Under the pieces are notes generated by a model that did not search any database, was not told where the DNA came from, and was given only the letters and a program-made list of their open reading frames with translations. The position numbers and the translations under genes were made by a program. 64,000 nucleotides of DNA, taken from IMG/VR virus record IMGVR_UViG_2799112923_000001. One strand, written 5' to 3'. Source of the stretch: a virus (lineage: Duplodnaviria; Heunggongvirae; Uroviricota; Caudoviricetes). Shown here one piece after another: positions 1,552 to 35,225 of this stretch; the first letter of the stretch is position 1; each line of letters starts with the position of its first letter.

Positions 1552-2046
1552 ATGAGTGATTTAGAATTACTAACAAGCAAACTTAATGAATTTGGGTATG
1601 GTTATAGAATTGAAAGCCCAAGAAATTTAGATACAGAAGCCAATATGGTAGTTATTGCCAAATCTTCAAAATCATTGGTACACCATTTCTATTTCAATAA
1701 TGACAAGTATGTAAGAAGTGATACTGGTTCAATATCTATTGTTGAAATTGTACATAAAGATTTTGACGATGCTTTGAATTTCATTGGCAGTTTGCCACCA
1801 GATAGAGAAATAACTGAATATTCTCGTTGGAAGCATTTTAAGGGAACAATAGCCGAAGTTATCACTGTAGCCAAACATAGTGAAACAGGTGAAGAAATGG
1901 TTGTGTACAGATGTTCAGGAAATCATGGACAAACTAATCATACAGATGGTGTATATGCCAGACCAAAGGATATGTTCTTATCCGAAGTAGACCATGTAAA
2001 ATACCCAAATGTTAATACAAAATATCGCTTAACAAAGATGGTATAA
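1552..2046 (+). CDS. DUF1653-domain protein
   Basis: C-terminal WKHFKG...AKHSETGEEMVVY...YARPKDMFLSEVD matches the DUF1653 pattern. Confidence 0.8.
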   Translation: MSDLELLTSKLNEFGYGYRIESPRNLDTEANMVVIAKSSKSLVHHFYFNNDKYVRSDTGSISIVEIVHKDFDDALNFIGSLPPDREITEYSRWKHFKGTIAEVITVAKHSETGEEMVVYRCSGNHGQTNHTDGVYARPKDMFLSEVDHVKYPNVNTKYRLTKMV

Positions 2047-2600: not shown

Positions 2601-2608
2601 TATAAATA
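2601..2608 (+). promoter_or_regulatory. T4-type late promoter TATAAATA
   Basis: Exact gp55-type consensus directly after a terminator, upstream of the leader-peptide gene cluster. Confidence 0.7.
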
Positions 2609-2620
2609 CTATAAATGCTA

Positions 2621-2734
2621 ATGATTGACCCATATTTACTTGTAAAGTTCATACTAATAGGCCTGCTAGTTAGTGGTCTAATTTCTTTGGGTTGGATAGG
2701 ATTAAAAACACTATTTAAAAAGATAGGAAAGTAG
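2621..2734 (+). CDS. small membrane protein (37 aa, not in ORF track)
   Basis: MIDPYLLVKFILIGLLVSGLISLGWIGLKTLFKKIGK, single TM. Confidence 0.5.
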   Translation: MIDPYLLVKFILIGLLVSGLISLGWIGLKTLFKKIGK

Positions 2735-2735
2735 T

Positions 2736-3206
2736 ATGAATTTGACAGAAGCAGAAGAAATCTTAAAGCAGCATAACTACATAATGCTTGAAGATAAGTA
2801 TATGGATGATATGGATGATGAACTTGACTCTACTATATCATTCAGCACCATTAAGAACATAGTTGAAAAGAAGTATAAGACTGAAATCAAAAACGGCGAA
2901 CTTTACGCATATCCATTTGAGGACAAGAAAAATATTCAGATTAGAATTGACTCACGCGGAAGAAATTCTGTATGCAGCATTTTCGGTGTTTACTTGGTTG
3001 ACTCAAATGGCGAAACATATACCGTCAAGAAGAACTATAAGTATTATGTGACAAAGAAAAATCCTGAATGCCATTATCTAGGAAAGGATAATGGCTACAT
3101 GGAAGAATACGGTGGTGCTGAAGAAGAAATCCTTAAACCTGTTGAAGAAGCACTAGCAAAAATGAATAAGCCAGGTTTCTTTAAGAGAGTTTTTAAAAGA
3201 GGTTAA
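2736..3206 (+). CDS. leader-family protein (putative internal head protein)
   Basis: N-terminus MNLTEAEEILKQHNYIMLE. Confidence 0.75.
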   Translation: MNLTEAEEILKQHNYIMLEDKYMDDMDDELDSTISFSTIKNIVEKKYKTEIKNGELYAYPFEDKKNIQIRIDSRGRNSVCSIFGVYLVDSNGETYTVKKNYKYYVTKKNPECHYLGKDNGYMEEYGGAEEEILKPVEEALAKMNKPGFFKRVFKRG

Positions 3207-3207
3207 T

Positions 3208-3612
3208 ATGAATTTAACAGAAGCAAAAAAGATTTTGAATGATAATGGTTATAAAGTAGAACTAAATGAAATTAAAAAATCCACTATTACAGAAGCAAGT
3301 AAGTATGACTACGAATATGATTTGTTAAAAAGAGAGTATTTCCCAGATGCCAAAGATATTGACATTCACGCAAACAGAAGTATTAGAAGTCCATTATGGA
3401 AAACCTTATATGGTTGGGAATGTGAATTTTATTTGAATGGTAAAAGACACTGGTTCACATTTGGTAAAGGTGGATGTGGTTTTGAACCATCATTACAAGC
3501 ATACATTAGAAAATACTGCAAACTTGATTCATTTGATGATTACAAAGAAATTAAAGAAGAATATCCTGATGCTACATTAGAAGATATTAGAAATATAGCC
3601 ACAATGGGGTAA
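3208..3612 (+). CDS. leader-family protein (putative internal head protein)
   Basis: N-terminus MNLTEAKKILNDNGYKVELNE. Confidence 0.75.
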   Translation: MNLTEAKKILNDNGYKVELNEIKKSTITEASKYDYEYDLLKREYFPDAKDIDIHANRSIRSPLWKTLYGWECEFYLNGKRHWFTFGKGGCGFEPSLQAYIRKYCKLDSFDDYKEIKEEYPDATLEDIRNIATMG

Positions 3613-3615
3613 AGT

Positions 3616-4332
3616 ATGGAATTATATGAAGCAAAAAAGATTTTAAATGATAAAGGTTATATTCTTGAAAAGGCTTTACCTAAATATAAACAATTTAGAT
3701 TACATTGTGAAGAAAAGTTCAATGAAATAAGTGACCAAGTTAAAGAAATAGGAATTACAGAATATAATTTAGAACCAGAACAATTTCAAATTTCTATATC
3801 TGAATCATTTTGTACTATTGGCATTTTAAGTAATGGTAAAAGGTTTCTTGTAAATCTAAGTATTGAAGATAATGGAAAGAAGTTGTATATTACAAATTAT
3901 GCAACTGAAAAACAAAAAATACTTGATATAAAAATGTTAGATAGTAATGACCTTCCTAGAATAGTGTTAGCCACTTATAATGATTTGCTTGCTAATTTAA
4001 GAGAAGCAGAAGAAGTCCTAAACAAGAATGGTTATATTTTAGAAGCATACGATGATGACTATAAAGATGACCTCGGCGATGTTGTAAATGTAATCAATAA
4101 AAAGCATGAAGTACTTGGAACAAAAGAAGTTCCAGCAGAAGAAGGCTACAAAACATATAAAATCGTAACCAAAGATAATAAATTCTATACATTGGAATTT
4201 AAAAACAAATTCTTTGAATATAGAGGTAGACTTTATCCTTGGAGATTAACACTATCTACCAGTAAATTCGGATTTGTAGTTATTGGATATAATTTAAGAC
4301 AACTAAACGATTATTTTAATAAAGTAAAATAG
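3616..4332 (+). CDS. leader-family protein with two leader copies
   Basis: MELYEAKKILNDKGYILE plus internal LREAEEVLNKNGYILE (3997-4044). Confidence 0.75.
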   Translation: MELYEAKKILNDKGYILEKALPKYKQFRLHCEEKFNEISDQVKEIGITEYNLEPEQFQISISESFCTIGILSNGKRFLVNLSIEDNGKKLYITNYATEKQKILDIKMLDSNDLPRIVLATYNDLLANLREAEEVLNKNGYILEAYDDDYKDDLGDVVNVINKKHEVLGTKEVPAEEGYKTYKIVTKDNKFYTLEFKNKFFEYRGRLYPWRLTLSTSKFGFVVIGYNLRQLNDYFNKVK

Positions 4333-4343
4333 GGATAGAGCTT

Positions 4344-4832
4344 ATGTGTAAATTCTGTGAAGGCTATGATAGAAAGAATAGTGGTAAATTCGCCATCTAT
4401 ATGACAAAATGGTCAGACGAAAGAGGAACTACTTTGAGTGTAGATTTTGATGGTTTTGACGAAAGCAGTGATACTGATTTTGAAGTAAACTTTTGCCCAA
4501 TGTGCGGTAAAGAACTAAAACAAGTTCAAGAATCCACAGAACTCACTGAAGCATTAGAAACATTAAAAGATAATGGCTACATTTGTGAATCCAACAAACA
4601 TTTTGAATTGTGGCAATACAAATTAAGTGTAAAGAAAGAACTAAATAAATGGTTGAAAAACAAAACTTGGTTTAAATCATTTGATTATATGAGAAGCTAT
4701 ATTAAATGGGAAATTATGGTGGATATAGTTACAGAAACTATGAAAGATTACTTTGAACAAGGAAAATCTGTTAATGACTGTGTAGAACAAATTATAGGTC
4801 TCGCAGAAGAAGCCATTAAAATAGGTGGTTAA
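4344..4832 (+). CDS. Zn-ribbon protein fused to a leader-family module
   Basis: CKFC...CPMCG, then internal LTEALETLKDNGYICE (4542-4589). Confidence 0.7.
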   Translation: MCKFCEGYDRKNSGKFAIYMTKWSDERGTTLSVDFDGFDESSDTDFEVNFCPMCGKELKQVQESTELTEALETLKDNGYICESNKHFELWQYKLSVKKELNKWLKNKTWFKSFDYMRSYIKWEIMVDIVTETMKDYFEQGKSVNDCVEQIIGLAEEAIKIGG

Positions 4833-4833
4833 T

Positions 4834-5199
4834 ATGGAATTGAACGAAGCTAAAGAAGTTTTAAAAGAGAATGGCTACTTAATGGAATCTTTACAGATTG
4901 ACTTCAGTACACTTGATAATGCGTTAGATTCAATGCGAAGAAATATAGAAGAAACAAAAAAGAAATTCCAAACATTGACTGACGGATTACAAGATAAGTT
5001 ATTTTCTAATATGGATGGAACACCAGACATTTATATACTCAAAGATTATCCATTTAGCGGATATAACATCGTATATGAATATGATAATTTATCTATATGC
5101 GTAAATCAATACTGGAATGTAAGAATAAATGACAAAAAATTTGAATATATGGAAAATGTAAACGAAGTAATTAAAACAATTTTGGATAATGTAAAGTAA
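4834..5199 (+). CDS. leader-family protein
   Basis: Start moved to ATG 4834; MELNEAKEVLKENGYLME. Confidence 0.75.
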   Translation: MELNEAKEVLKENGYLMESLQIDFSTLDNALDSMRRNIEETKKKFQTLTDGLQDKLFSNMDGTPDIYILKDYPFSGYNIVYEYDNLSICVNQYWNVRINDKKFEYMENVNEVIKTILDNVK

Positions 5200-5200
5200 T

Positions 5201-5476
5201 ATGAGATTAGATGAAGCATTAGAGATTTTACATAACGAAGGTTATTTGACTGAAGAACATATTGCCAAAGTCGGTTCTAAACTTCGTATAGATTTTGACA
5301 AATATAAAATCGTAACCAGACGAGCACTTGATAAAGCAGTTGACGAAATAGGTAAACATATTGCTGATGATTATACTGTATGGTTTCCTGACGGATATGA
5401 AAAATCACACTTGAAAGATTACTTGCGTGAAGAAATCCAAAAATACATACAAGAGAATATAGAGGTTTTGGTATGA
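5201..5476 (+). CDS. leader-family protein
   Basis: MRLDEALEILHNEGYLTE. Confidence 0.75.
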   Translation: MRLDEALEILHNEGYLTEEHIAKVGSKLRIDFDKYKIVTRRALDKAVDEIGKHIADDYTVWFPDGYEKSHLKDYLREEIQKYIQENIEVLV

Positions 5477-5754
5477 GATTAGACGAAGCAAAAGAAGTAT
5501 TGAAAGAACATGGTTTTATTTGTGAATCAGCAAGTAAAGAAATCTACAATGTACTTTCACGAAATTATGATGTAGTAGATGAATACAGTGATAGTCAATT
5601 TAGAACAACATTTACTTGTAAAACAAAAGGTGTTCGTAAGGCTGACAGATATTTAATGACATCTAAAGGTGGATTGGCTATAAGAAAGGGCGACCAATGG
5701 GTTCTTATTGCTAACGATTTAGCAGAAATTGAAGATTATTTTGCTAATAGATAA
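5473..5754 (+). CDS. leader-family protein
   Basis: MRLDEAKEVLKEHGFICE. Confidence 0.75.
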   Translation: MRLDEAKEVLKEHGFICESASKEIYNVLSRNYDVVDEYSDSQFRTTFTCKTKGVRKADRYLMTSKGGLAIRKGDQWVLIANDLAEIEDYFANR

Positions 5755-5763
5755 GGAGTTAAT

Positions 5764-6018
5764 ATGGAATTAGATGAAGCATTTGAAATTTTAAAAGAAA
5801 ATCGTTATATGGTTGAATCTACCAGAGAAGAAATCATACAACACTGCGATGAAGTCATAGAAGAATTAAAAACAAGTGAATATGGTGAACTTGATATAGG
5901 TTTTGATACTGAAGCAGACCGAGATATTGCTACTGCATATCTTGATTCAATAGATTATCCTTGGGATTATTGTGAAGGCGAGGATGACGAACCAGCAATA
6001 GCAATTTATAAGAACTAA
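5764..6018 (+). CDS. leader-family protein, very acidic
   Basis: MELDEAFEILKENRYMVE; AGGAG RBS. Confidence 0.75.
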   Translation: MELDEAFEILKENRYMVESTREEIIQHCDEVIEELKTSEYGELDIGFDTEADRDIATAYLDSIDYPWDYCEGEDDEPAIAIYKN

Positions 6019-6049: not shown

Positions 6050-6718
6050 ATGAGTGAAGTTAAAGAAGAAGTAGTAATAACAATGACTTCGTGGAAAAAG
6101 CGAATAAATGATGTATCAAAAACAATTTATTCACTTTTAAGAAACACATATAAGCCTAGAAGTATAGAATTAAATTTGGCTGAAGAAGAGTTCCCATTAA
6201 AAGAGAAAGAACTACCTGAAGATTTATTGTTATTAAAGAATGAAGGATTGGTAAACATAAACTGGTGTTATAGAAATGTAAAAACATTTAAGAAAGTTTT
6301 ACCAACAGTATTGAAATACTATAATGAAAAAGATTTACTAATCATGTCAGCCGATGATGATGTAGAATATCAGCCGGATATAATAGAAAAATTTGTAGAA
6401 TTACATAAGAAAAATCCTGACGCATTTATAGCATTTAGAAACCAACAAGGAGAATTTAGAGGACAACCTTGTACAAATGGTGGTGCGACATTATATAAAG
6501 TAAGTTTTTTCAGTGATATATTTTTTAAGATACCTGAATGTGTTATCCAAACAAATGAAGATGACTGGTGGTATAGTTATTGTTTTTGGAAAACAGGTGG
6601 AAGAAAAGCTGTGTTTAGTGGAATACAATTAAAATTCTTTAATCAAGATACTGGTAGTCTTAAAAATGGTCTATATAATACAATTAGAACAAAAAAATTA
6701 TTGTTGAGTTTGGGGTGA
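6050..6718 (+). CDS. GT-A fold glycosyltransferase-like protein
   Basis: VITMTSWKKR, ADDD (DxD), EDDWW. Confidence 0.7.
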   Translation: MSEVKEEVVITMTSWKKRINDVSKTIYSLLRNTYKPRSIELNLAEEEFPLKEKELPEDLLLLKNEGLVNINWCYRNVKTFKKVLPTVLKYYNEKDLLIMSADDDVEYQPDIIEKFVELHKKNPDAFIAFRNQQGEFRGQPCTNGGATLYKVSFFSDIFFKIPECVIQTNEDDWWYSYCFWKTGGRKAVFSGIQLKFFNQDTGSLKNGLYNTIRTKKLLLSLG

Positions 6719-6719
6719 T

Positions 6720-7457
6720 ATGACAAAAGATACAGTTATAGTTAGTTTAACTACACATTCAATTAGAGTTGCTCAGGTTGCTAAAACAGCCATTTTTTCT
6801 ATTTTACAAAACACTTATAAAGATGTTCATATCGTTCTTACATTATACAAAGACGATTTAAAACTTATTCCTGAGGATTTACAGTTGTTGATTGAAGCTG
6901 GAATGGTAGAATTAATAGTTGCTGATAAAGATTTAGGACCTCACTTGAAGTATTTTTATGCTATGCAGAAATATAGGGATAAACCAGTTATTACGATTGA
7001 CGATGATGTTATCTATCCTGAAAATATGATTGAAGAAATGGTAAATGCCTATAAGAAATATAATTGTATAATTGGTAGAAGATGTTATGAAATAAAATCA
7101 AATATGAATTATCATAACTGGCTTTGGACTGGACTTTCCCAAATTAAAGAACCCACACATAAGAATTTTGCTACTGGTATTGGAGGAATTTTATATCCAC
7201 CAAACTGTTTGGATTTATCAGACGATAATGTTAAAGAAATTCTAACTATTAAATATGATGATGATTTTTATTTAAAGGCTATTGAAGTTAGAAAAGACTT
7301 AAAAATTATGAGTATAATATATAATGGAGATTTATTATTTAAGAAAAATCTTAAAGACCCGTATACTCAAAGTATAGGCTTATGGAATAGTAATGTTCAT
7401 AAAGCAAATGATGGAATAAAAATGTTTGAAAGTGAATTTAGAAAATGTTTGTTATAA
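6720..7457 (+). CDS. GT-A fold glycosyltransferase-like protein
   Basis: VIVSLTT, GPHLKY, ITIDDDVIYP, TGIGGILYPP, DDFY; paralog of 6050..6718. Confidence 0.75.
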   Translation: MTKDTVIVSLTTHSIRVAQVAKTAIFSILQNTYKDVHIVLTLYKDDLKLIPEDLQLLIEAGMVELIVADKDLGPHLKYFYAMQKYRDKPVITIDDDVIYPENMIEEMVNAYKKYNCIIGRRCYEIKSNMNYHNWLWTGLSQIKEPTHKNFATGIGGILYPPNCLDLSDDNVKEILTIKYDDDFYLKAIEVRKDLKIMSIIYNGDLLFKKNLKDPYTQSIGLWNSNVHKANDGIKMFESEFRKCLL

Positions 7458-8074
7458 GTAATAATTGTTGTGGTGGCTATCTTTATAATCATATAGGTAT
7501 AAAGTATAACAATCCTTTTATTTGGAACCGTATGACTTATGATTCAGTCTATTTTATAATGAAAAATTTTAATAAAATAGATTGGTTAGATTATAATTTT
7601 GAAAAATCTACAAGAGTAGAAAATACATTCAATATAAAAGTAGGAAATGATATAAGTATTCATTATTCACATTATGTATTTGACCCAAATGCTAATGTTA
7701 TAATTAAAAATAAAACATTTGATAAAACTAAATACGATTTTTGGCAAGGAGATGTTAAGTATTGTAAAATTTGGGAACTTATTAATGAAAAATACTTAAC
7801 TAGAACTAAAAGAATGTTAGAACTTAAAGAAGAACCAGCTTTTATAATCAGAGATGATGAAAAATATATAAAAGAACCTTCTAAAAAATATACCATCAAT
7901 GATATTATAAATGCTACAGTACCATATAAAAGAATTATCATTACAGAGAATGATAAATTAAAAACAGACAATAAACTGTGTAAAATAATTTTAGTGAAAG
8001 ATGTTTATAATGTTCACCCTGAAATTCAAATAAGAGAACATCTACAAATGATAAAGGATTTTTTAGGACTATAA
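7445..8074 (+). CDS. DUF1919-like polysaccharide biosynthesis protein
   Basis: ISNNCCGGYLY...NNPF...IHYSHY. Confidence 0.65.
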   Translation: MFVISNNCCGGYLYNHIGIKYNNPFIWNRMTYDSVYFIMKNFNKIDWLDYNFEKSTRVENTFNIKVGNDISIHYSHYVFDPNANVIIKNKTFDKTKYDFWQGDVKYCKIWELINEKYLTRTKRMLELKEEPAFIIRDDEKYIKEPSKKYTINDIINATVPYKRIIITENDKLKTDNKLCKIILVKDVYNVHPEIQIREHLQMIKDFLGL

Positions 8075-8075
8075 T

Positions 8076-9140
8076 ATGATTGAGAAATTTATATTAAACA
8101 ATTATCTTGAAGGAAAACCAATTATTTCAAACGGACCTTTGTGTAATGCTTCTTTTATAAACATTGGTGGTAAAGATTATATTTCAGGAAGAGAAGCGAA
8201 TTATACTTTTATAAATCCAAAATATACTGGTAAAAATTACAATGTGATTAAGGAAGGTAGTTTCTTTTGGACAGATAATAATTTGTATGATGAAAACACT
8301 GGAAATTTTGTTAAAAAAATTTCCATACATCCTAGTTCTTGTAATGTAGGTTATTGTGGATTGGAGGATTTTCGTTTTATAAAATGGAATGATATAACTT
8401 ATGGATTTTGTACTGAACCGTCAATGAGTAATGGTAGAATAACTGGTCAAATAAGTATGTTTGAATGTTCAGATTCATTTAATCTTGAAAATCGCAAAAT
8501 ATGTTTTACAAAACAAATGACTGAAAAAAATTGGCAGCCTATTGAATGTTTACCTTTCAAAGTGGTTTATTCACACAAACCATTTACTATATTAAATGTA
8601 TCGGATATGTCTGTTCAAATAGTTAATGAAAATTTGTGTCAAGATTCATATAGCGGTTCTACACCAGTTTTGAGATATAAAGATGGTTGGATAAGTTTAG
8701 TTCATAAACGAAATGGAAATAAGTATCTGCACTATTTAATTAAATATGATAAGAACTTTAGGATTGAACGTATTTCTAATGAATTTTCATTTTTTGGAGT
8801 TGATGTAGAATTTGCTACTGGAATGAGAGTTAGAAATGAAACTGTGGATATTTTAGCTTCTATAAATGACACAATGACTTTCAAATTTAGTATAAATTCT
8901 GAAATTATAGATAAGATATTTAATGAAGAATTGACTGATAATACAGTTCATCAGGAAATGTATAATAACTTTGTAAAATATGCCATAGAGTGCGATAATA
9001 AATTAGGAATTGCTGGATTTGGAACATGGTGCACCGACGCAGTTCTTATTAGTGAAATAGTAATAATGGATAATGAAATAATAAGAAATAATACTTTACT
9101 TAAAAAGATTTTTATGGAAAGATATAAAGAATTTTCATAA
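8076..9140 (+). CDS. beta-propeller glycosidase/phosphorylase-like protein (GH130-like)
   Basis: GLEDFRF, EKNWQP, GSTP, YLH, VEFATG. Confidence 0.6.
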   Translation: MIEKFILNNYLEGKPIISNGPLCNASFINIGGKDYISGREANYTFINPKYTGKNYNVIKEGSFFWTDNNLYDENTGNFVKKISIHPSSCNVGYCGLEDFRFIKWNDITYGFCTEPSMSNGRITGQISMFECSDSFNLENRKICFTKQMTEKNWQPIECLPFKVVYSHKPFTILNVSDMSVQIVNENLCQDSYSGSTPVLRYKDGWISLVHKRNGNKYLHYLIKYDKNFRIERISNEFSFFGVDVEFATGMRVRNETVDILASINDTMTFKFSINSEIIDKIFNEELTDNTVHQEMYNNFVKYAIECDNKLGIAGFGTWCTDAVLISEIVIMDNEIIRNNTLLKKIFMERYKEFS

Positions 9141-12689: not shown

Positions 12690-12717
12690 AAATGGTGGTT
12701 CAAACGAACCACCATTT
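12690..12717. terminator. bidirectional intrinsic terminator
   Basis: AAATGGTGGTTC-AAAC-GAACCACCATTT between convergent genes. Confidence 0.85.
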
Positions 12718-12721
12718 ATTT

Positions 12722-13270
12722 TTAGGTATAATGATACGGGTCTAATTCTATTCCTATTGTTTCGCCTTCCAAAGCGGCTTTAAAATCTTCATCTTCTACA
12801 TTAGGAATAGTACCAACAAATTCTTCTTTATCATGGTCTAATCTATACAATTCAGCACTGTATTCATCATCTTCATAGTGAATAACATAAATGTAAGATT
12901 CATCATCAACATAATAGTTTATATTGTATTCGTCCCTATAAGGTCCATAAGCACCATCCGGGTCAACATTCTTTAATGGTTGCCATCTATTACATTTGAA
13001 CATAAATCTATCTTCAGTGCTTTCGTCAATTCCGTATGGGTCATTTACATATCTTTCTTCATTATGTAAGTCATTAAGTTCATTTTTGTAATTTTCCAAA
13101 TCGTCAATACTCCAGTCCGCCAAAGTATAATAATCCAAATCGGAATCACACATTGGGTCATCCAAAATTTCTTCAATTAACTCATGCTTATCTGGTGAGA
13201 TTTCTTCTTTGTTGTATTCCAACAAAAAGCCTTTGGAATGTAAAATCTGTTGTGCTTCGTTCAATTTCAT
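12722..13270 (-). CDS. leader-family protein, acidic
   Basis: MKLNEAQQILHSKGFLLE; near-consensus late promoter CATAAATA on - strand at 13306-13313. Confidence 0.75.
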   Translation of the reverse strand: MKLNEAQQILHSKGFLLEYNKEEISPDKHELIEEILDDPMCDSDLDYYTLADWSIDDLENYKNELNDLHNEERYVNDPYGIDESTEDRFMFKCNRWQPLKNVDPDGAYGPYRDEYNINYYVDDESYIYVIHYEDDEYSAELYRLDHDKEEFVGTIPNVEDEDFKAALEGETIGIELDPYHYT

Positions 13271-13311
13271 ATCTAACCTTGTAACTTTTTTATTACATTA
13301 TACTATATTTA

Positions 13312-13377
13312 TGTAAATTTAATTTTACATAATTTTACATATTTTCCATTGACAACTGTAGAATAATTATCTATATT
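13312..13377 (+). promoter_or_regulatory. TGTAAA-N6-TTTACA box plus sigma70-type promoter
   Basis: Box 13312-13329, gap 19, TTGACA 13349, N17, TATATT 13372. Confidence 0.8.
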
Positions 13378-13408
13378 AATAGTGTAAACAATAAAAGAGG
13401 TAAAAACA

Positions 13409-22648: not shown

Positions 22649-23553
22649 AAGCGTTGATATTGAGTGATTTACACCCGGACATGTATTTCGGTTATGTAAT
22701 CAAACCTGAAGAATTGCGTGGTTTGACAGAGAAAACCGAAGAAATGGTGTATAGAACACTAGATTGGATGTGGAACATATACGCCGTTCCTGCCACAGAC
22801 GCAATCCTTATAGCCGGTGACTTGGCTAATGACTATCTCACATTCACCAGCGAAATAAATTGGCTAGCTGGCAAGTACTGCGAAGTGTATCTATGTTTAG
22901 GAAACCACGATTTGACAGTAAGGGGTGCTACAAGTTCCAAGTCCAATTTACAATTCGCAAGTTCCGAACAAAAGATTGAAAAAATGAAGGAACATTGTGC
23001 TAAGTTCCCAAATGTTCATTTATTGGATGGAAATGTTGTGAATGGCATTGGTGGCTGTATGATGACCTGTGATTTGAAATGCGACTGTGCCCCAAATTAT
23101 GACCATCGCACCGAATGGAAACGCAAATGGTATGATGGAAAGCACTGGCGTTATATGGGTCAAGAACCTGGGTTAATTTGGAACGATTGTAAACAGAAAT
23201 TGGATGCGATTGTTGCCCAAAAACCAAAGTTCATATTAACTCATTTCGCACCATATCAGGTTGGTGTAAATTTCAAACATAGGCTCAGTAATGATAACAA
23301 ATTCTTCTATTTCAATGCGGAAGAATGGTTAGAAAAACTAGACCATAACACCACTTGGATTTGTGGGCATACACATACTAGGAAATACTGTGAATATGTG
23401 AATGAACAAAATGAACTTATCAAAATTCTATGTAATCCATTTGGTTATCCAGGTGAGCATGATACTTATGCTGATAAATGGTGTTATAAAAATGGAAAAC
23501 TAGATAGGACTTCCATTGACACAACTTATAACGATTACATAGTTGAAATATAA
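22645..23553 (+). CDS. calcineurin-like metallophosphoesterase
   Basis: SDLH, AGD, GNHD, TH, GHTH motifs. Confidence 0.9.
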   Translation: MKALILSDLHPDMYFGYVIKPEELRGLTEKTEEMVYRTLDWMWNIYAVPATDAILIAGDLANDYLTFTSEINWLAGKYCEVYLCLGNHDLTVRGATSSKSNLQFASSEQKIEKMKEHCAKFPNVHLLDGNVVNGIGGCMMTCDLKCDCAPNYDHRTEWKRKWYDGKHWRYMGQEPGLIWNDCKQKLDAIVAQKPKFILTHFAPYQVGVNFKHRLSNDNKFFYFNAEEWLEKLDHNTTWICGHTHTRKYCEYVNEQNELIKILCNPFGYPGEHDTYADKWCYKNGKLDRTSIDTTYNDYIVEI

Positions 23554-25765: not shown

Positions 25766-25773
25766 TATAAATA
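25766..25773 (+). promoter_or_regulatory. T4-type late promoter TATAAATA
   Basis: Exact consensus upstream of the structural operon. Confidence 0.75.
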
Positions 25774-25780
25774 TATTACT

Positions 25781-27979
25781 ATGGCTGAAACCCGAACAAA
25801 GATTTATAGCATTGAATCAGACGAAAATGGTAAATTATGGGACTTGCGTACAACAATGACCTACACAGTCCCACTTCGTCTACGCACGAAAGCTGGGAAT
25901 GATTTATCACAGGATGTTTATAAATGTAATAGATTTCCATTCGTTTATGATTTGACTACTAACACTACTGTTGGTAGTGAATCAATAGAAAAGTTTAGTA
26001 CAAACGATGGTATTTTACAAGACGAAACAGGTCATTTCTTATTCAGTAGAAAATTATTAGTAGAACACGGGATTGGTTTTATCCTAGCCAGTTGGTTATC
26101 TTTAAAAGATGATAAAATTGTAGTCAAGTTCAAAGAAACATATCTTAAAAATTGGTATTCATCCCCTTCTTCTACTGAAATAACCGACGATGAAATTTAT
26201 TCTTGGGATTCTTTTATTAACAAACCTTATCGTTATACAGAATCTTCAGGAAATATGGTTCCTGAATATGCTTTTCCTTGGTTAAGATTTAATAGTTTTG
26301 AAACATTCGCAACTAATTATCCAATAGCTGATGAAAAATTGATATTTGATAAATTAGCGAATGGTTGGAGTAATTGTACTTATAGAAACAACTGTGACAC
26401 AACAAAGATTGATGATACAGAATGGGCTACTTTGTTTTTAAGTAGACGATTCCCAGGTGTTGGATTAAAAACATTTAATTCAACAACATTAGATGTTCCA
26501 ACTGATTTAAAAGACATCAAAATTGGTAGTGGAGAATTCATTTATCCATACACTAGCAATTACAATAGTGATTATCATTATTGTTTCATTAGAAGTCCAT
26601 TACCATCCGACCTTCATATTACAGATTTGAATCCTGCTAAATTTGGTATTTTAGCCGAGTTCATTGGTAATGGTGATAAAACATTAGTTTATAACCACTC
26701 AGGTGAAGATATTACACCTAATGAATATGATAGTTCTACAACTTCATATAAAGATAAAAATTCTTTGATTGTTTCTACTGATAACAATGGTGCTACTGAT
26801 ATTGACATTGTAGAAAAATATACCTTGGTTACAACTTATATGGATGATGTTAATCCATACGAAGCAATTCCAGGTATTACCAAATACACTTATAAGAATG
26901 TAAAAAGAAACAATGGTAAAACTTACCAATACTCGGAAGTTGGTAAAACATATACTGCCGACCCACCAGCAGAAACTATCCTAGATGAAATGTTAAATGA
27001 CCCTGAAACGAAATGGCAAACACCAACTGAATACTATTCAAGTAAGGGAACAACAGCATCACAAGCAAACATTGAAGACCCCTTTAATGCTATTAGTGAA
27101 TCACAGTCATGGTTCTGGGTTGAAACTATCAAGAACTGGTGTGTTTATGTTGAACGAAACAACATATTGTATCTAATGTGCTGGAACGGTAGAGATGGTT
27201 GGGATTTGTTGGAAGCAATTATGAATTTGAAGAATACAGGTTATATACAAAGTTTAGCAAGATTGTATTTGTATTCTCATTTGTTCTTTGCCGAAGGTCC
27301 AGCCGTAGAATGGAATATATGTAATCCAATTCGTATGCCAGATGGTAACATTAACCAGTATTATTACAGAACATTGTATTTAACAAGAGATACAATTAGC
27401 AACAACTATAATACAAAGTTCCAAAGTTTACACGATACAAAGATTTACCAAACTGGTGAAAGATATTTATTTTCTAATGTGGGTATTGGTTTAGACCCAG
27501 ACACTACAGGTAATAAAAAGACATATTCATATAAAGACATTTATGTAGATAAAACAAGACCTGCTTGCCACGGTGTTCAAAACCAGTATTGCCCAGTGGT
27601 CGCAAAGTTGGCTAATGGTAATTTTGGATTATACTTTGTTTATCATGTGAATGGTAATGGTTATGGTATTCCAAACGAGAACAACCCAAGTATGATTATT
27701 TCTGCTGATGATGCTAATGCTAGATGTAGAGATATATTTGGTGCTGGTGACGATAAAACCATTATGGGAGATTGGAAACGATTTAACGGAACTAACACAG
27801 ATGAAGAAAAACCAACTTCAATTCGTTCCAACACAGACGAAACCATTTATGGTGCCGCTAATTTAACACAAAATAAAGCAGATACCAAACTAAATACTAT
27901 TAGTATATTAGCAAACAGACCAAACCCAACAACTAACAATAGTGATATTCAAGATTATCTTGAAAGATGGGATAGATAA
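25781..27979 (+). CDS. putative virion structural protein (732 aa)
   Basis: Late promoter; N/T/Y-rich; operon ends in the neck gene. Confidence 0.55.
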   Translation: MAETRTKIYSIESDENGKLWDLRTTMTYTVPLRLRTKAGNDLSQDVYKCNRFPFVYDLTTNTTVGSESIEKFSTNDGILQDETGHFLFSRKLLVEHGIGFILASWLSLKDDKIVVKFKETYLKNWYSSPSSTEITDDEIYSWDSFINKPYRYTESSGNMVPEYAFPWLRFNSFETFATNYPIADEKLIFDKLANGWSNCTYRNNCDTTKIDDTEWATLFLSRRFPGVGLKTFNSTTLDVPTDLKDIKIGSGEFIYPYTSNYNSDYHYCFIRSPLPSDLHITDLNPAKFGILAEFIGNGDKTLVYNHSGEDITPNEYDSSTTSYKDKNSLIVSTDNNGATDIDIVEKYTLVTTYMDDVNPYEAIPGITKYTYKNVKRNNGKTYQYSEVGKTYTADPPAETILDEMLNDPETKWQTPTEYYSSKGTTASQANIEDPFNAISESQSWFWVETIKNWCVYVERNNILYLMCWNGRDGWDLLEAIMNLKNTGYIQSLARLYLYSHLFFAEGPAVEWNICNPIRMPDGNINQYYYRTLYLTRDTISNNYNTKFQSLHDTKIYQTGERYLFSNVGIGLDPDTTGNKKTYSYKDIYVDKTRPACHGVQNQYCPVVAKLANGNFGLYFVYHVNGNGYGIPNENNPSMIISADDANARCRDIFGAGDDKTIMGDWKRFNGTNTDEEKPTSIRSNTDETIYGAANLTQNKADTKLNTISILANRPNPTTNNSDIQDYLERWDR

Positions 27980-34071: not shown

Positions 34072-34422
34072 ATGCTCTATGTGGATTTAATGGATATTAT
34101 CTTAAATGCGAATTTTATTTTGCTTGCAGTTGCGGCTTGTATTATGGTGTTTAAGGTAAAAGCCTGGAAGATTTATGTTCCAATGATTATTGTGTTTATC
34201 ATTGTGTTCATTGGATTTTTTAGGGTAGATTTTCGTCTTTGGTGTGTTGACCAGGACATTAATAAAACCAAACAGGACATTGAACACGCAAATGAATACT
34301 GTATTCATTCGTTATCGGATGAAGATGTATTACAGTGTAGAATTATGTTGAAGAAATATGGAAACCAGCAAATGATGTTGGAAAGACGAAAGCAGTGGTA
34401 TCTAGTTCAAAAGTTTAACTAA
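34072..34422 (+). CDS. two-TM membrane protein
   Basis: Start moved to ATG 34072 (AGGAG RBS). Confidence 0.7.
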   Translation: MLYVDLMDIILNANFILLAVAACIMVFKVKAWKIYVPMIIVFIIVFIGFFRVDFRLWCVDQDINKTKQDIEHANEYCIHSLSDEDVLQCRIMLKKYGNQQMMLERRKQWYLVQKFN

Positions 34423-34423
34423 T

Positions 34424-34897
34424 ATGAAATGGAATAAACGATTAGAAAAGAAGATTGTAAAACTGTGCGATAGTTTGGGAATTGAAACCAACATTGACTG
34501 GGATGTTGGTCACTGCGATTTCATCTACCACAATGAACACCAATACAGACCATTGGGAGCTGTGCGTTGGTATGGCTATATGATGGATTGTAATCCGACC
34601 ATTGGAAACAAAATCTATGTAGCCACTTGTTGGACTAAAATCGTTTTTACCGACTATGTATCTAGTAAACCGACTAAAATTGACATTTGGGATGTGAACT
34701 ATGATGATAAAAAAGAACATACTCATTTTCGTAGTGATATAAGCGAACACAAGACCCAAACAATTCCTGACGATTATACTGAACAACAGTTGTTAGCATT
34801 TTTGGAAGAAAATTTAACAAGAGTGTTAAAAGCATCTCGTTTGGATAAAATGTATAAGTCATTGGATAAAATTCAAGAGGACTTTAATGACGAATGA
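34424..34897 (+). CDS. DF-tail family protein
   Basis: Ends RLDKMYKSLDKIQEDFNDE*. Confidence 0.8.
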   Translation: MKWNKRLEKKIVKLCDSLGIETNIDWDVGHCDFIYHNEHQYRPLGAVRWYGYMMDCNPTIGNKIYVATCWTKIVFTDYVSSKPTKIDIWDVNYDDKKEHTHFRSDISEHKTQTIPDDYTEQQLLAFLEENLTRVLKASRLDKMYKSLDKIQEDFNDE

Positions 34898-35225
34898 TGA
34901 ATATAATAAGTATGCTGAAACATTTAGTGAATTAGGATTTACAAGTGAACGGTACTACAGTTCGGATTTTATTCTAATTTATTTTGAATGTTCTCGGGTT
35001 GGTGAATTTGATACAAAAAAATTAATGTTTGAAATATGTACAGAAGCATGTGTTCATTTTACATATTGTGTGGGAACTGAAGAAACTATTATAAACTTCT
35101 CATTTAACAAAAATGTAATGTGTGATTATGCTGCTGGAATAACTTATCTTAAAAAATTAAACTACGAAATTTCAAAAGGGAAAGAACTAATAGAAAAACT
35201 TAAAATGGTAAAGGATTTCGCATGA
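34887..35225 (+). CDS. DF-tail family protein
   Basis: Ends ELIEKLKMVKDFA*. Confidence 0.8.
   Translation: MTNDEYNKYAETFSELGFTSERYYSSDFILIYFECSRVGEFDTKKLMFEICTEACVHFTYCVGTEETIINFSFNKNVMCDYAAGITYLKKLNYEISKGKELIEKLKMVKDFA

Follow-up and report, generated by a model that had tools for sequence, protein, structure and literature searches.

Head-Targeting Leaders in T4 and a New Shared Leader

In bacteriophage T4, the internal proteins IPI, IPII, IPIII, and Alt bear a capsid-targeting sequence (CTS) (Mullaney and Black 1996; reviewed in PMC9026906, PMC3012670). Its sequence is MKTYQEFIAE (PMC8442874), of which positions 4 and 7 are important to targeting, and positions 8 and 10 to processing (PMC9026906). 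The protease gp21 cleaves after L/I-X-E, as first seen at a Glu-Ala bond, and the head propeptides of T4 are 10–19 residues long (PMC9026906). T-even phages have variable loci for internal proteins, at which one protein with a CTS-like leader stands in place of another (cited as ref. 69 in PMC9026906), and these loci have been described as holding a "diverse set of defense proteins with only a conserved CTS" (PMC3012670). The phiKZ-like giants SPN3US, phiKZ, and 201phi2-1 provide another example, as many proteins are loaded into their heads and trimmed after Glu by a gp21-related protease (PMC5694885, PMC10052503). Here we analyze a leader peptide of 18 residues shared by otherwise unrelated proteins (hereafter, the cargoes) that are encoded in a tight array at 2736–6018, and by an isolated gene at 12722–13270 (minus strand), in the window, that is, the whole stretch of 64,000 nucleotides of the viral IMG/VR record IMGVR_UViG_2799112923_000001.

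The best available reading of this leader is that it follows the principle known from T4 with a new sequence and far more extensively. More specifically, we give a probability of roughly 0.55 to the reading that the 18-mer is a portable and cleavable address tag, similar to a CTS, that loads a changeable cargo into the capsid. The resemblance with the T4 CTS lies in the short N-terminal propeptide (here 18 residues) carried by otherwise unrelated proteins, and in the aromatic-[I/L]-x-E end of the leader, which parallels F7-I8-A9-E10 of T4. It extends to the late genes, to a gp21-type protease in the lineage, and to a tag separable from the fold of its cargo, as far as these can be read here from sequence and models. 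In contrast with the T4 CTS, the new leader is nearly twice as long, its amphipathic helix is strongly conserved, it contains a further motif, LxEA, and it is found on far more cargo families. The T-even loci share with the array the tandem arrangement of small unrelated genes that have the leader alone in common, that differ between close relatives, and that are considered part of the arms race with host defenses. Unlike them, the present system has eight genes in what appears to be one late operon plus isolated copies, has leaders also inside fused open reading frames (ORFs), and extends over a large group of giant phages, all uncultured. The propeptides of the phiKZ-like phages differ more strongly, as they often exceed 100 residues, are cut at A/S-x-E, and show no single portable consensus peptide.

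Copies, Conservation, and Boundary of the Leader

The window, with a G+C content of about 31%, is DNA of a phage distantly related to T4, the UvsW helicase of which has 37%–41% identity to its homologs in cyanophages and pelagiphages. A hidden Markov model (HMM) of the leader was built from 202 distinct leaders and run over all six frames of the window. Together with a regular expression, it identifies exactly 10 copies, which score between 29.7 and 39.8 bits, whereas the next match has only 5.3 bits. Eight of these copies coincide with a start codon, seven of them within the array and the eighth at 13270 on the minus strand, and the other two are internal (3991 and 4536). An initial annotation, made from the sequence alone, had quoted eight N-termini, all of which are indeed found where it placed them, but its list lacked the two internal copies. 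The wider scan that it recommended adds these two. Another 12–14 copies are present in G002, a complete relative described below.

The consensus of the 202 distinct leaders is MxLxEAKxILKxNGY[IL]xE (MNLNEAKQILKENGYIVE). Its positions 5 and 10 are E and L in 202 of 202 leaders, position 3 is L in 97%, position 6 is A in 99%, position 14 is G in 91%, position 15 is Y or F in 99.5%, position 16 is I or L in 92%, and position 18 is E in 88%. Val is found at position 16 in only two of the 202 leaders, though it is common at position 17. Two short motifs recur in the set: LxEA at residues 3–6 (193 of 202) and, somewhat less often, [YF][IL]xE as the end of the leader (162 of 202, or 80%). Within the window, L3, E5, A6, and L10 are invariant, and E18 is present in nine of the 10 copies.

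The similarity among leaders ends directly after Glu18, both in the window and in the public copies. The initial annotation had reported such a divergence immediately past the final Glu, and this is confirmed by the cargoes of the window, no pair of which is similar by BLASTP (E > 0.4 for every pair). Two pairs of window cargoes that single-linkage clustering had put together as paralogs were ruled out by the same direct comparison. At the DNA level the leader is much less conserved: codon choice at identical residues agrees in only 68% of pairs, with a mean nucleotide identity of 64%. Besides, the peptide is kept across phages whose genomes can be aligned in a few patches only, with 65%–86% DNA identity. 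Hence, selection acts on the leader protein and not on its DNA.

Distribution, Cargo Families, and Shuffling

A profile search over 1.84 billion representative proteins (E ≤ 0.001) places the leader on no fewer than 195 protein clusters, and a word-indexed search gives 131 further leader proteins, some of them on contigs of 395–410 kb. Most distinct public copies (192 of 239, or about 80%) begin at residues 1–3. The remaining 47 are internal, and in 25 of these a Met is still present at leader position 1. Once the leader is masked, the cargoes fall into about 110 BLASTP families. Pfam and PHROGs give almost nothing for the window proteins and for 109 cargo representatives, the exceptions being one NUDIX hit, one resembling HSP90, and a small number more, and the ESM Atlas contains no usable match. 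Because almost no cargo has a recognizable family, an effector or anti-defense role for these proteins is pure conjecture.

The relatives show how leaders and cargoes are combined. In most relatives, the 238-aa ORF of the window corresponds to two genes, one for each half. The cargo of the 162-aa ORF is also found there behind a purely N-terminal leader, and the zinc ribbon plus leader that precede it in the window are joined to a different cargo. One relative protein even has two leaders in tandem. Such chimeras indicate that leader and cargo are swapped at the joint. These comparisons show that the 238-aa and 162-aa ORFs, with their internal leaders, are gene fusions. A search for related loci with the 162-aa protein matched only its N-terminal CxxC domain. 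In the subfamily of leader gene 1, the leader is followed by LEDKYMDD[ML]DxEL[DE] and the protein ends with a basic tail, KPGFFKR[VI]FKRG, so that both ends are conserved and the middles are variable.

Late-Promoter Boxes and Association with Head Genes

The array is preceded by a terminator-like hairpin on the plus strand (2573–2598; stem of 10–11 bp, free energy of −13 kcal/mol, z = −4.4, followed by UUUUCUU), which closes the upstream gene block. Directly after it come the T4-type late-promoter box TATAAATA (2601–2608, plus strand), an ORF of 37 aa, and then leader gene 1. The isolated gene has the late-promoter-like box CATAAATA at 13313–13306 on the minus strand, 35 nucleotides (nt) ahead of its ATG at 13270. 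Both the terminator and box ahead of the array and the box upstream of the isolated copy are therefore as first annotated. The exact TATAAATA is underrepresented in the window, where it has 5 copies versus 10.8 expected, and ATAAATA is found within 60 nt upstream of only five of the 128 window genes, two of these five being the two leader loci. The eight ORFs of the array, all on the plus strand, are separated by gaps of 1–11 nt, with one overlap of 4 nt, and this packing fits a single transcription unit. No strong σ70-like promoter was found in the intergenic space ahead of the array.

No terminator was found past the array, and the transcript may therefore continue into the glycosyltransferase genes at 6050–9140. 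This block, also on the plus strand, includes a GT2 protein (6720–7457) and a DUF1919 protein (7445–8074), and it is possibly co-transcribed late.

The same association is found in G002, an IMG/VR genome of 424,163 bp with terminal repeats that aligns to the window in few patches (65%–86% DNA identity) and in which the leader copies are scattered genome-wide. In this genome, ATAAATA occurs 4–37 nt upstream of nine of 12 leader genes, versus 102 of 669 genes (15%) overall (Fisher p = 5e-6). In the relatives, the box also precedes the scaffold and capsid genes. These promoter motifs suggest that the leader genes are expressed late, together with the head genes. Many ATAAATA boxes of G002 and of the window lie just 4–7 nt before the ATG, e.g., the one at 25766 before the 732-aa ORF at 25781. 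Such a spacing leaves no room for a ribosome-binding site and suggests leaderless late mRNAs.

Among the genes of this complete, leader-bearing relative is one for a prohead protease of the T4 (gp21) type (PF03420, E = 8e-30; PHROG head maturation protease, E = 1.7e-54). G002 also encodes a gp23-type capsid protein and has a weak match to a PHROG head scaffolding protein (E = 0.0045). In the capsid proteins of G002 and of another relative, G005, LxE stands directly before a conserved DFxxGVGAPLG (LLTE|DF and ALNE|DF), with different surroundings. The gp23 protein of T4 is cut at FLTE|A, as deduced from the alignment of its 521-aa chain with the 456-aa mature chain. Taken together, these sites would fit an L-x-E specificity in the clade. 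In both relatives, a late ORF that lies shortly ahead of the scaffold and capsid genes (201875–202459 in G002 and 34276–35190 in G005) contains a weaker leader-like module. Another late ORF of G002, of 194 aa (217968–218552, plus strand), repeats the N-terminal segment of the capsid protein (LILDE|DFSMGVGGPCGLDQGIPHGG) and is perhaps a paralog of the capsid propeptide region.

Predicted Structure

AlphaFold models made with family alignments cover three leader contexts, in the 238-aa and 162-aa ORFs. In the model of the 238-aa ORF (mean predicted local distance difference test [pLDDT] of 67.7), the first leader forms a helix at residues 3–12, and an irregular stretch at residues 13–22 separates this helix from the first cargo domain. 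A long helix ends in the second leader, where pLDDT falls below 50 over residues 138–149, and a second domain modeled with confidence (pLDDT 84–91) comes next. The model of the 162-aa ORF has a leader helix at residues 67–76, an irregular segment of low confidence at 77–84, and a confident four-helix bundle at 85–161. In none of the three contexts is the end of the leader, GY-h-x-E (h, hydrophobic), modeled as paired with a strand. The cargo folds themselves differ, one being an alpha-beta sandwich, another a further alpha-beta domain, and the last the four-helix bundle.

Nearly all the fold matches of the 238-aa model start at residue 19 or beyond, and the few that reach residues 1–18 are weak (Z of 5.3–8.0, root-mean-square deviation of 5–12 Å). 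The fold search with this model gave only common alpha-beta sandwiches (Z of 6–8), with no clear relative. The leader is predicted to consist of an N-terminal amphipathic helix (residues 3–12) and a flexible G-[YF]-[IL]-x-E, outside the folds of the cargoes. The initial annotation had considered that the leader might belong to a shared folded domain; instead, all three models place it outside the cargo fold.

A Probable Capsid Address and Its Alternatives

If the 18-mer is a capsid address, one would expect the tag to bind the scaffolding core during head assembly, by which the cargo would be enclosed in the prohead. A gp21-type protease would then cut behind the Glu of [IL]-x-E, perhaps with a further cut at the invariant L3-x-E5|A6, and the mature cargo would remain in the head and enter the host with the DNA. 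In the fused ORFs, a single tag could load two domains that the cut would separate. The common tag might double as a recombination joint, allowing a quick exchange of cargoes. Were this correct, more than 100 protein families of no known kind would be marked as delivered with the DNA, and, being the first phage proteins to face host defenses, the cargoes would be prime anti-defense candidates. There would also be a second packaging tag, distinct in sequence, for the engineering of T4-like capsids, and the "load and clip" principle of T4 would prove to be in far wider use among uncultured giant phages.

Cargoes that meet a protease cutting at L/I-x-E should avoid this motif. The motifs observed in 105 cargo representatives were compared with the numbers expected from shuffled sequences, using the small proteins of G002 as background. 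The ratio of observed to expected [IL]xE is 0.93 in the cargoes and 1.23 in the small proteins of G002. The corresponding values are 1.23 and 1.15 for [IL]xD, and 1.23 and 1.08 for [IL]xK. With an enrichment similar to that of [IL]xD, about 189 [IL]xE sites would be expected in the cargoes, whereas 143 are seen, a difference of about three standard deviations by our own estimate. The capsid-targeting role proposed in the initial annotation has thus held for all the predictions that could be tested at the sequence level (position, L/I-x-E end, late boxes, protease in G002, fold, and depletion), but it fits poorly with the acidic cargoes and with a second, T4-like class of leaders.

These and several other observations weigh against a capsid address. 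Most cargoes are acidic or neutral, with a median isoelectric point of 5.5 and 61% of them below 6, whereas the internal proteins IPI–III of T4 are highly basic and associated with DNA. The leader is conserved far beyond the need of the tolerant 10-mer of T4, which suggests a more specific partner. The [IL]xE motif is short and common, and its depletion gives moderate support only, because the test was devised after the data had been seen. No close DNA or protein match was found in cultured phages, nor any cultured phage with the leader. The comparison with capsid cleavage sites suggested in the initial annotation revealed LxE in the capsid proteins of both relatives and FLTE in T4, but no detectable homology with MKTYQEFIAE or with T4 head proteins, with which only the terminal aromatic-[IL]-x-E pattern is shared. 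The leader HMM has no positive score on gp67, gp68, gp21, gp22, gp23, gp24, Alt.-1, Alt.-2, and Inh of T4, a scan that left IPI–III and full-length Alt outside.

The last of these observations concerns the second N-terminal class, MxxFxx[YF][IL]xxE, which is found on late genes of G002 and G005 and is closer to the MKTYQEFIAE of T4. Examples are MASFKQYLVNE, MGSFTKFINE, MEEFKKFLLDE, and MNLQDYFKNE, and the loci include 236106, 359501, 269705, and 202541 in G002, and 35269 and 21171 in G005. This class is enriched on the late genes of G002 (p = 0.003), and one ORF of this genome (231469–231999, minus strand) has the second class and then an 18-mer-type module in tandem. The 18-mer may consequently be a second tag with a receptor of its own, or no capsid tag at all. 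A more elaborate scheme can be drawn from this, which we regard as unlikely in its entirety. It would have two orthogonal clip-off tags, the 18-mer and the shorter T4-like MxxFxxY[IL]xxE, in a clade of T4-like phages of about 400 kb. These would sort more than 100 fast-shuffling cargo families into the head for injection, and the 18-mer would act by co-assembly with its counterpart module, carried by a core protein whose gene adjoins that of the scaffold.

Among the alternatives to a capsid address, the one that survives best, while still being improbable, is an uncleaved tag by which many late proteins would dock onto a single shared partner that is not in the capsid (for instance, a late assembly factor, a chaperone, or a host hub). 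The C-terminal helix common to the early proteins of this phage would be an analog. Such a tag would account for the extreme conservation of the 18-mer (E5 and L10 in all 202 leaders), beyond what a CTS of the T4 type needs, for its location between domains in about 20% of the copies, and for the mostly acidic cargoes. The free helix plus linker of the AlphaFold models suits any type of tag. However, docking leaves unexplained the [YF]-[IL]-x-E end and its preference for I/L over V, the stop of similarity exactly at the Glu, the avoidance in cargoes of [IL]xE but not of [IL]xD, and the leader-like modules beside scaffold and capsid genes.

The 18-mer might instead be a propeptide with another purpose, either keeping a toxic or enzymatic cargo inactive until its removal by the head protease or another late protease, or addressing the cargo to a different part of the virion such as the neck, tail, or baseplate, and this we consider distinctly unlikely. 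Late promoters and a protease-type end motif would suit any late protein that is processed by a protease, and the second class of leaders in the relatives could mean that each tag has its specific destination. However, one would not expect about 110 unrelated small cargoes to be all under zymogen-type control, and the prohead proteases of the T4 type act inside the prohead (PMC9026906).

It is very improbable that the leader represents the beginning (first helix and strand) of one small folded domain, an alpha-beta unit of PASTA-, HicA-, or receiver-like type, common to all the proteins, which would then be distant homologs and not tagged cargoes. The pattern of a helix followed by G, Y/F, and a hydrophobic residue is common in alpha-beta units, and PASTA (PF03793) does match the leader, with which it shares the local helix-G-[YF]-hydrophobic pattern. 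In the window, this match has 12.5 bits versus a cut-off of 23.2 and covers profile positions 9–30 only, in a domain of roughly 64 residues (E = 0.14). In relatives, it reaches 1e-4 (three relatives) and 5e-4 (an ORF of G002), with a shown score of 20.3 bits, still below the cut-off. Thus, all the PASTA scores are under the Pfam threshold and the domain is otherwise missing, while the cargoes lack sequence similarity, their modeled folds differ, and the GY-h-x-E end pairs with no strand in any of the three contexts. Finally, a DNA or RNA element at gene starts (a recombination site or a translation signal), with the peptide as a by-product, is scarcely credible. The chimeras do reveal recombination at the leader, but the low codon sharing and nucleotide identity and the retention of the peptide across barely alignable phages show selection on the protein, of which recombination would be a consequence.

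Gene Layout and Neighboring Features

The first gene past the promoter box of the array, as read from the sequence and the gene caller, is the hydrophobic 37-aa ORF (2621–2734, plus strand; MIDPYLLVKFILIGLLVSGLISLGWIGLKTLFKKIGK). It stands directly ahead of the leader genes and resembles a small membrane protein. Leader gene 1 (2736–3206, plus strand as the entire array; 156 aa, HMM score of 31.6 bits) has its leader at 2736–2789, followed by the LEDKYMDDMDxELD extension, and ends with the tail KPGFFKRVFKRG. It is followed by leader gene 2 (3208–3612, 134 aa, 37.6 bits) and by leader gene 3 (3616–4332, 238 aa), which is a fusion of two leader-cargo genes, the second leader (3991–4044) having lost its Met. 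Leader gene 4 (4344–4832, 162 aa) has an N-terminal CxxC...CxxC domain, an internal leader at 4536–4589, and the four-helix cargo. The remaining genes of the array are smaller: leader gene 5 (4834–5199, 121 aa, 36.3 bits); leader gene 6 (5201–5476, 91 aa, 29.9 bits), in which the leader ends with YLTE; leader gene 7 (5473–5754, 93 aa, 39.8 bits), whose start overlaps the stop of gene 6; and leader gene 8 (5764–6018, 84 aa), whose cargo is very acidic, with a net charge of −17.

The isolated leader gene (182 aa, 30.5 bits) is one of only six minus-strand genes of the window, and its cargo is even more acidic, with a net charge of −36. It ends at a 12-bp hairpin (12690–12717; free energy of −17.3 kcal/mol, z = −5.6) that has T/A runs on either side. 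The nearest record to the window, G001, is a fragment of 26 kb that does not include the array. Its copy of the isolated gene, at 22804 in a fragment about 94% identical, has a stop after 83 codons instead of 182, and there the open frame reaches 136 codons further upstream. Upstream of the isolated gene there is a divergent control region (13271–13408), with a strong σ70-like promoter on the plus strand (TTGACA-17-TATATT, 13349–13377) and a 10-nt repeat, atgtaaaatt, present twice in tandem at 13321–13340. On the other side of the array, in the upstream block, a DUF1653 protein (1552–2046, plus strand; E = 8e-17) starts with MSDLELLTSKLNEFGYGYRIE, which is faintly like the helix-GY pattern of the leader, though the leader HMM is silent on it.

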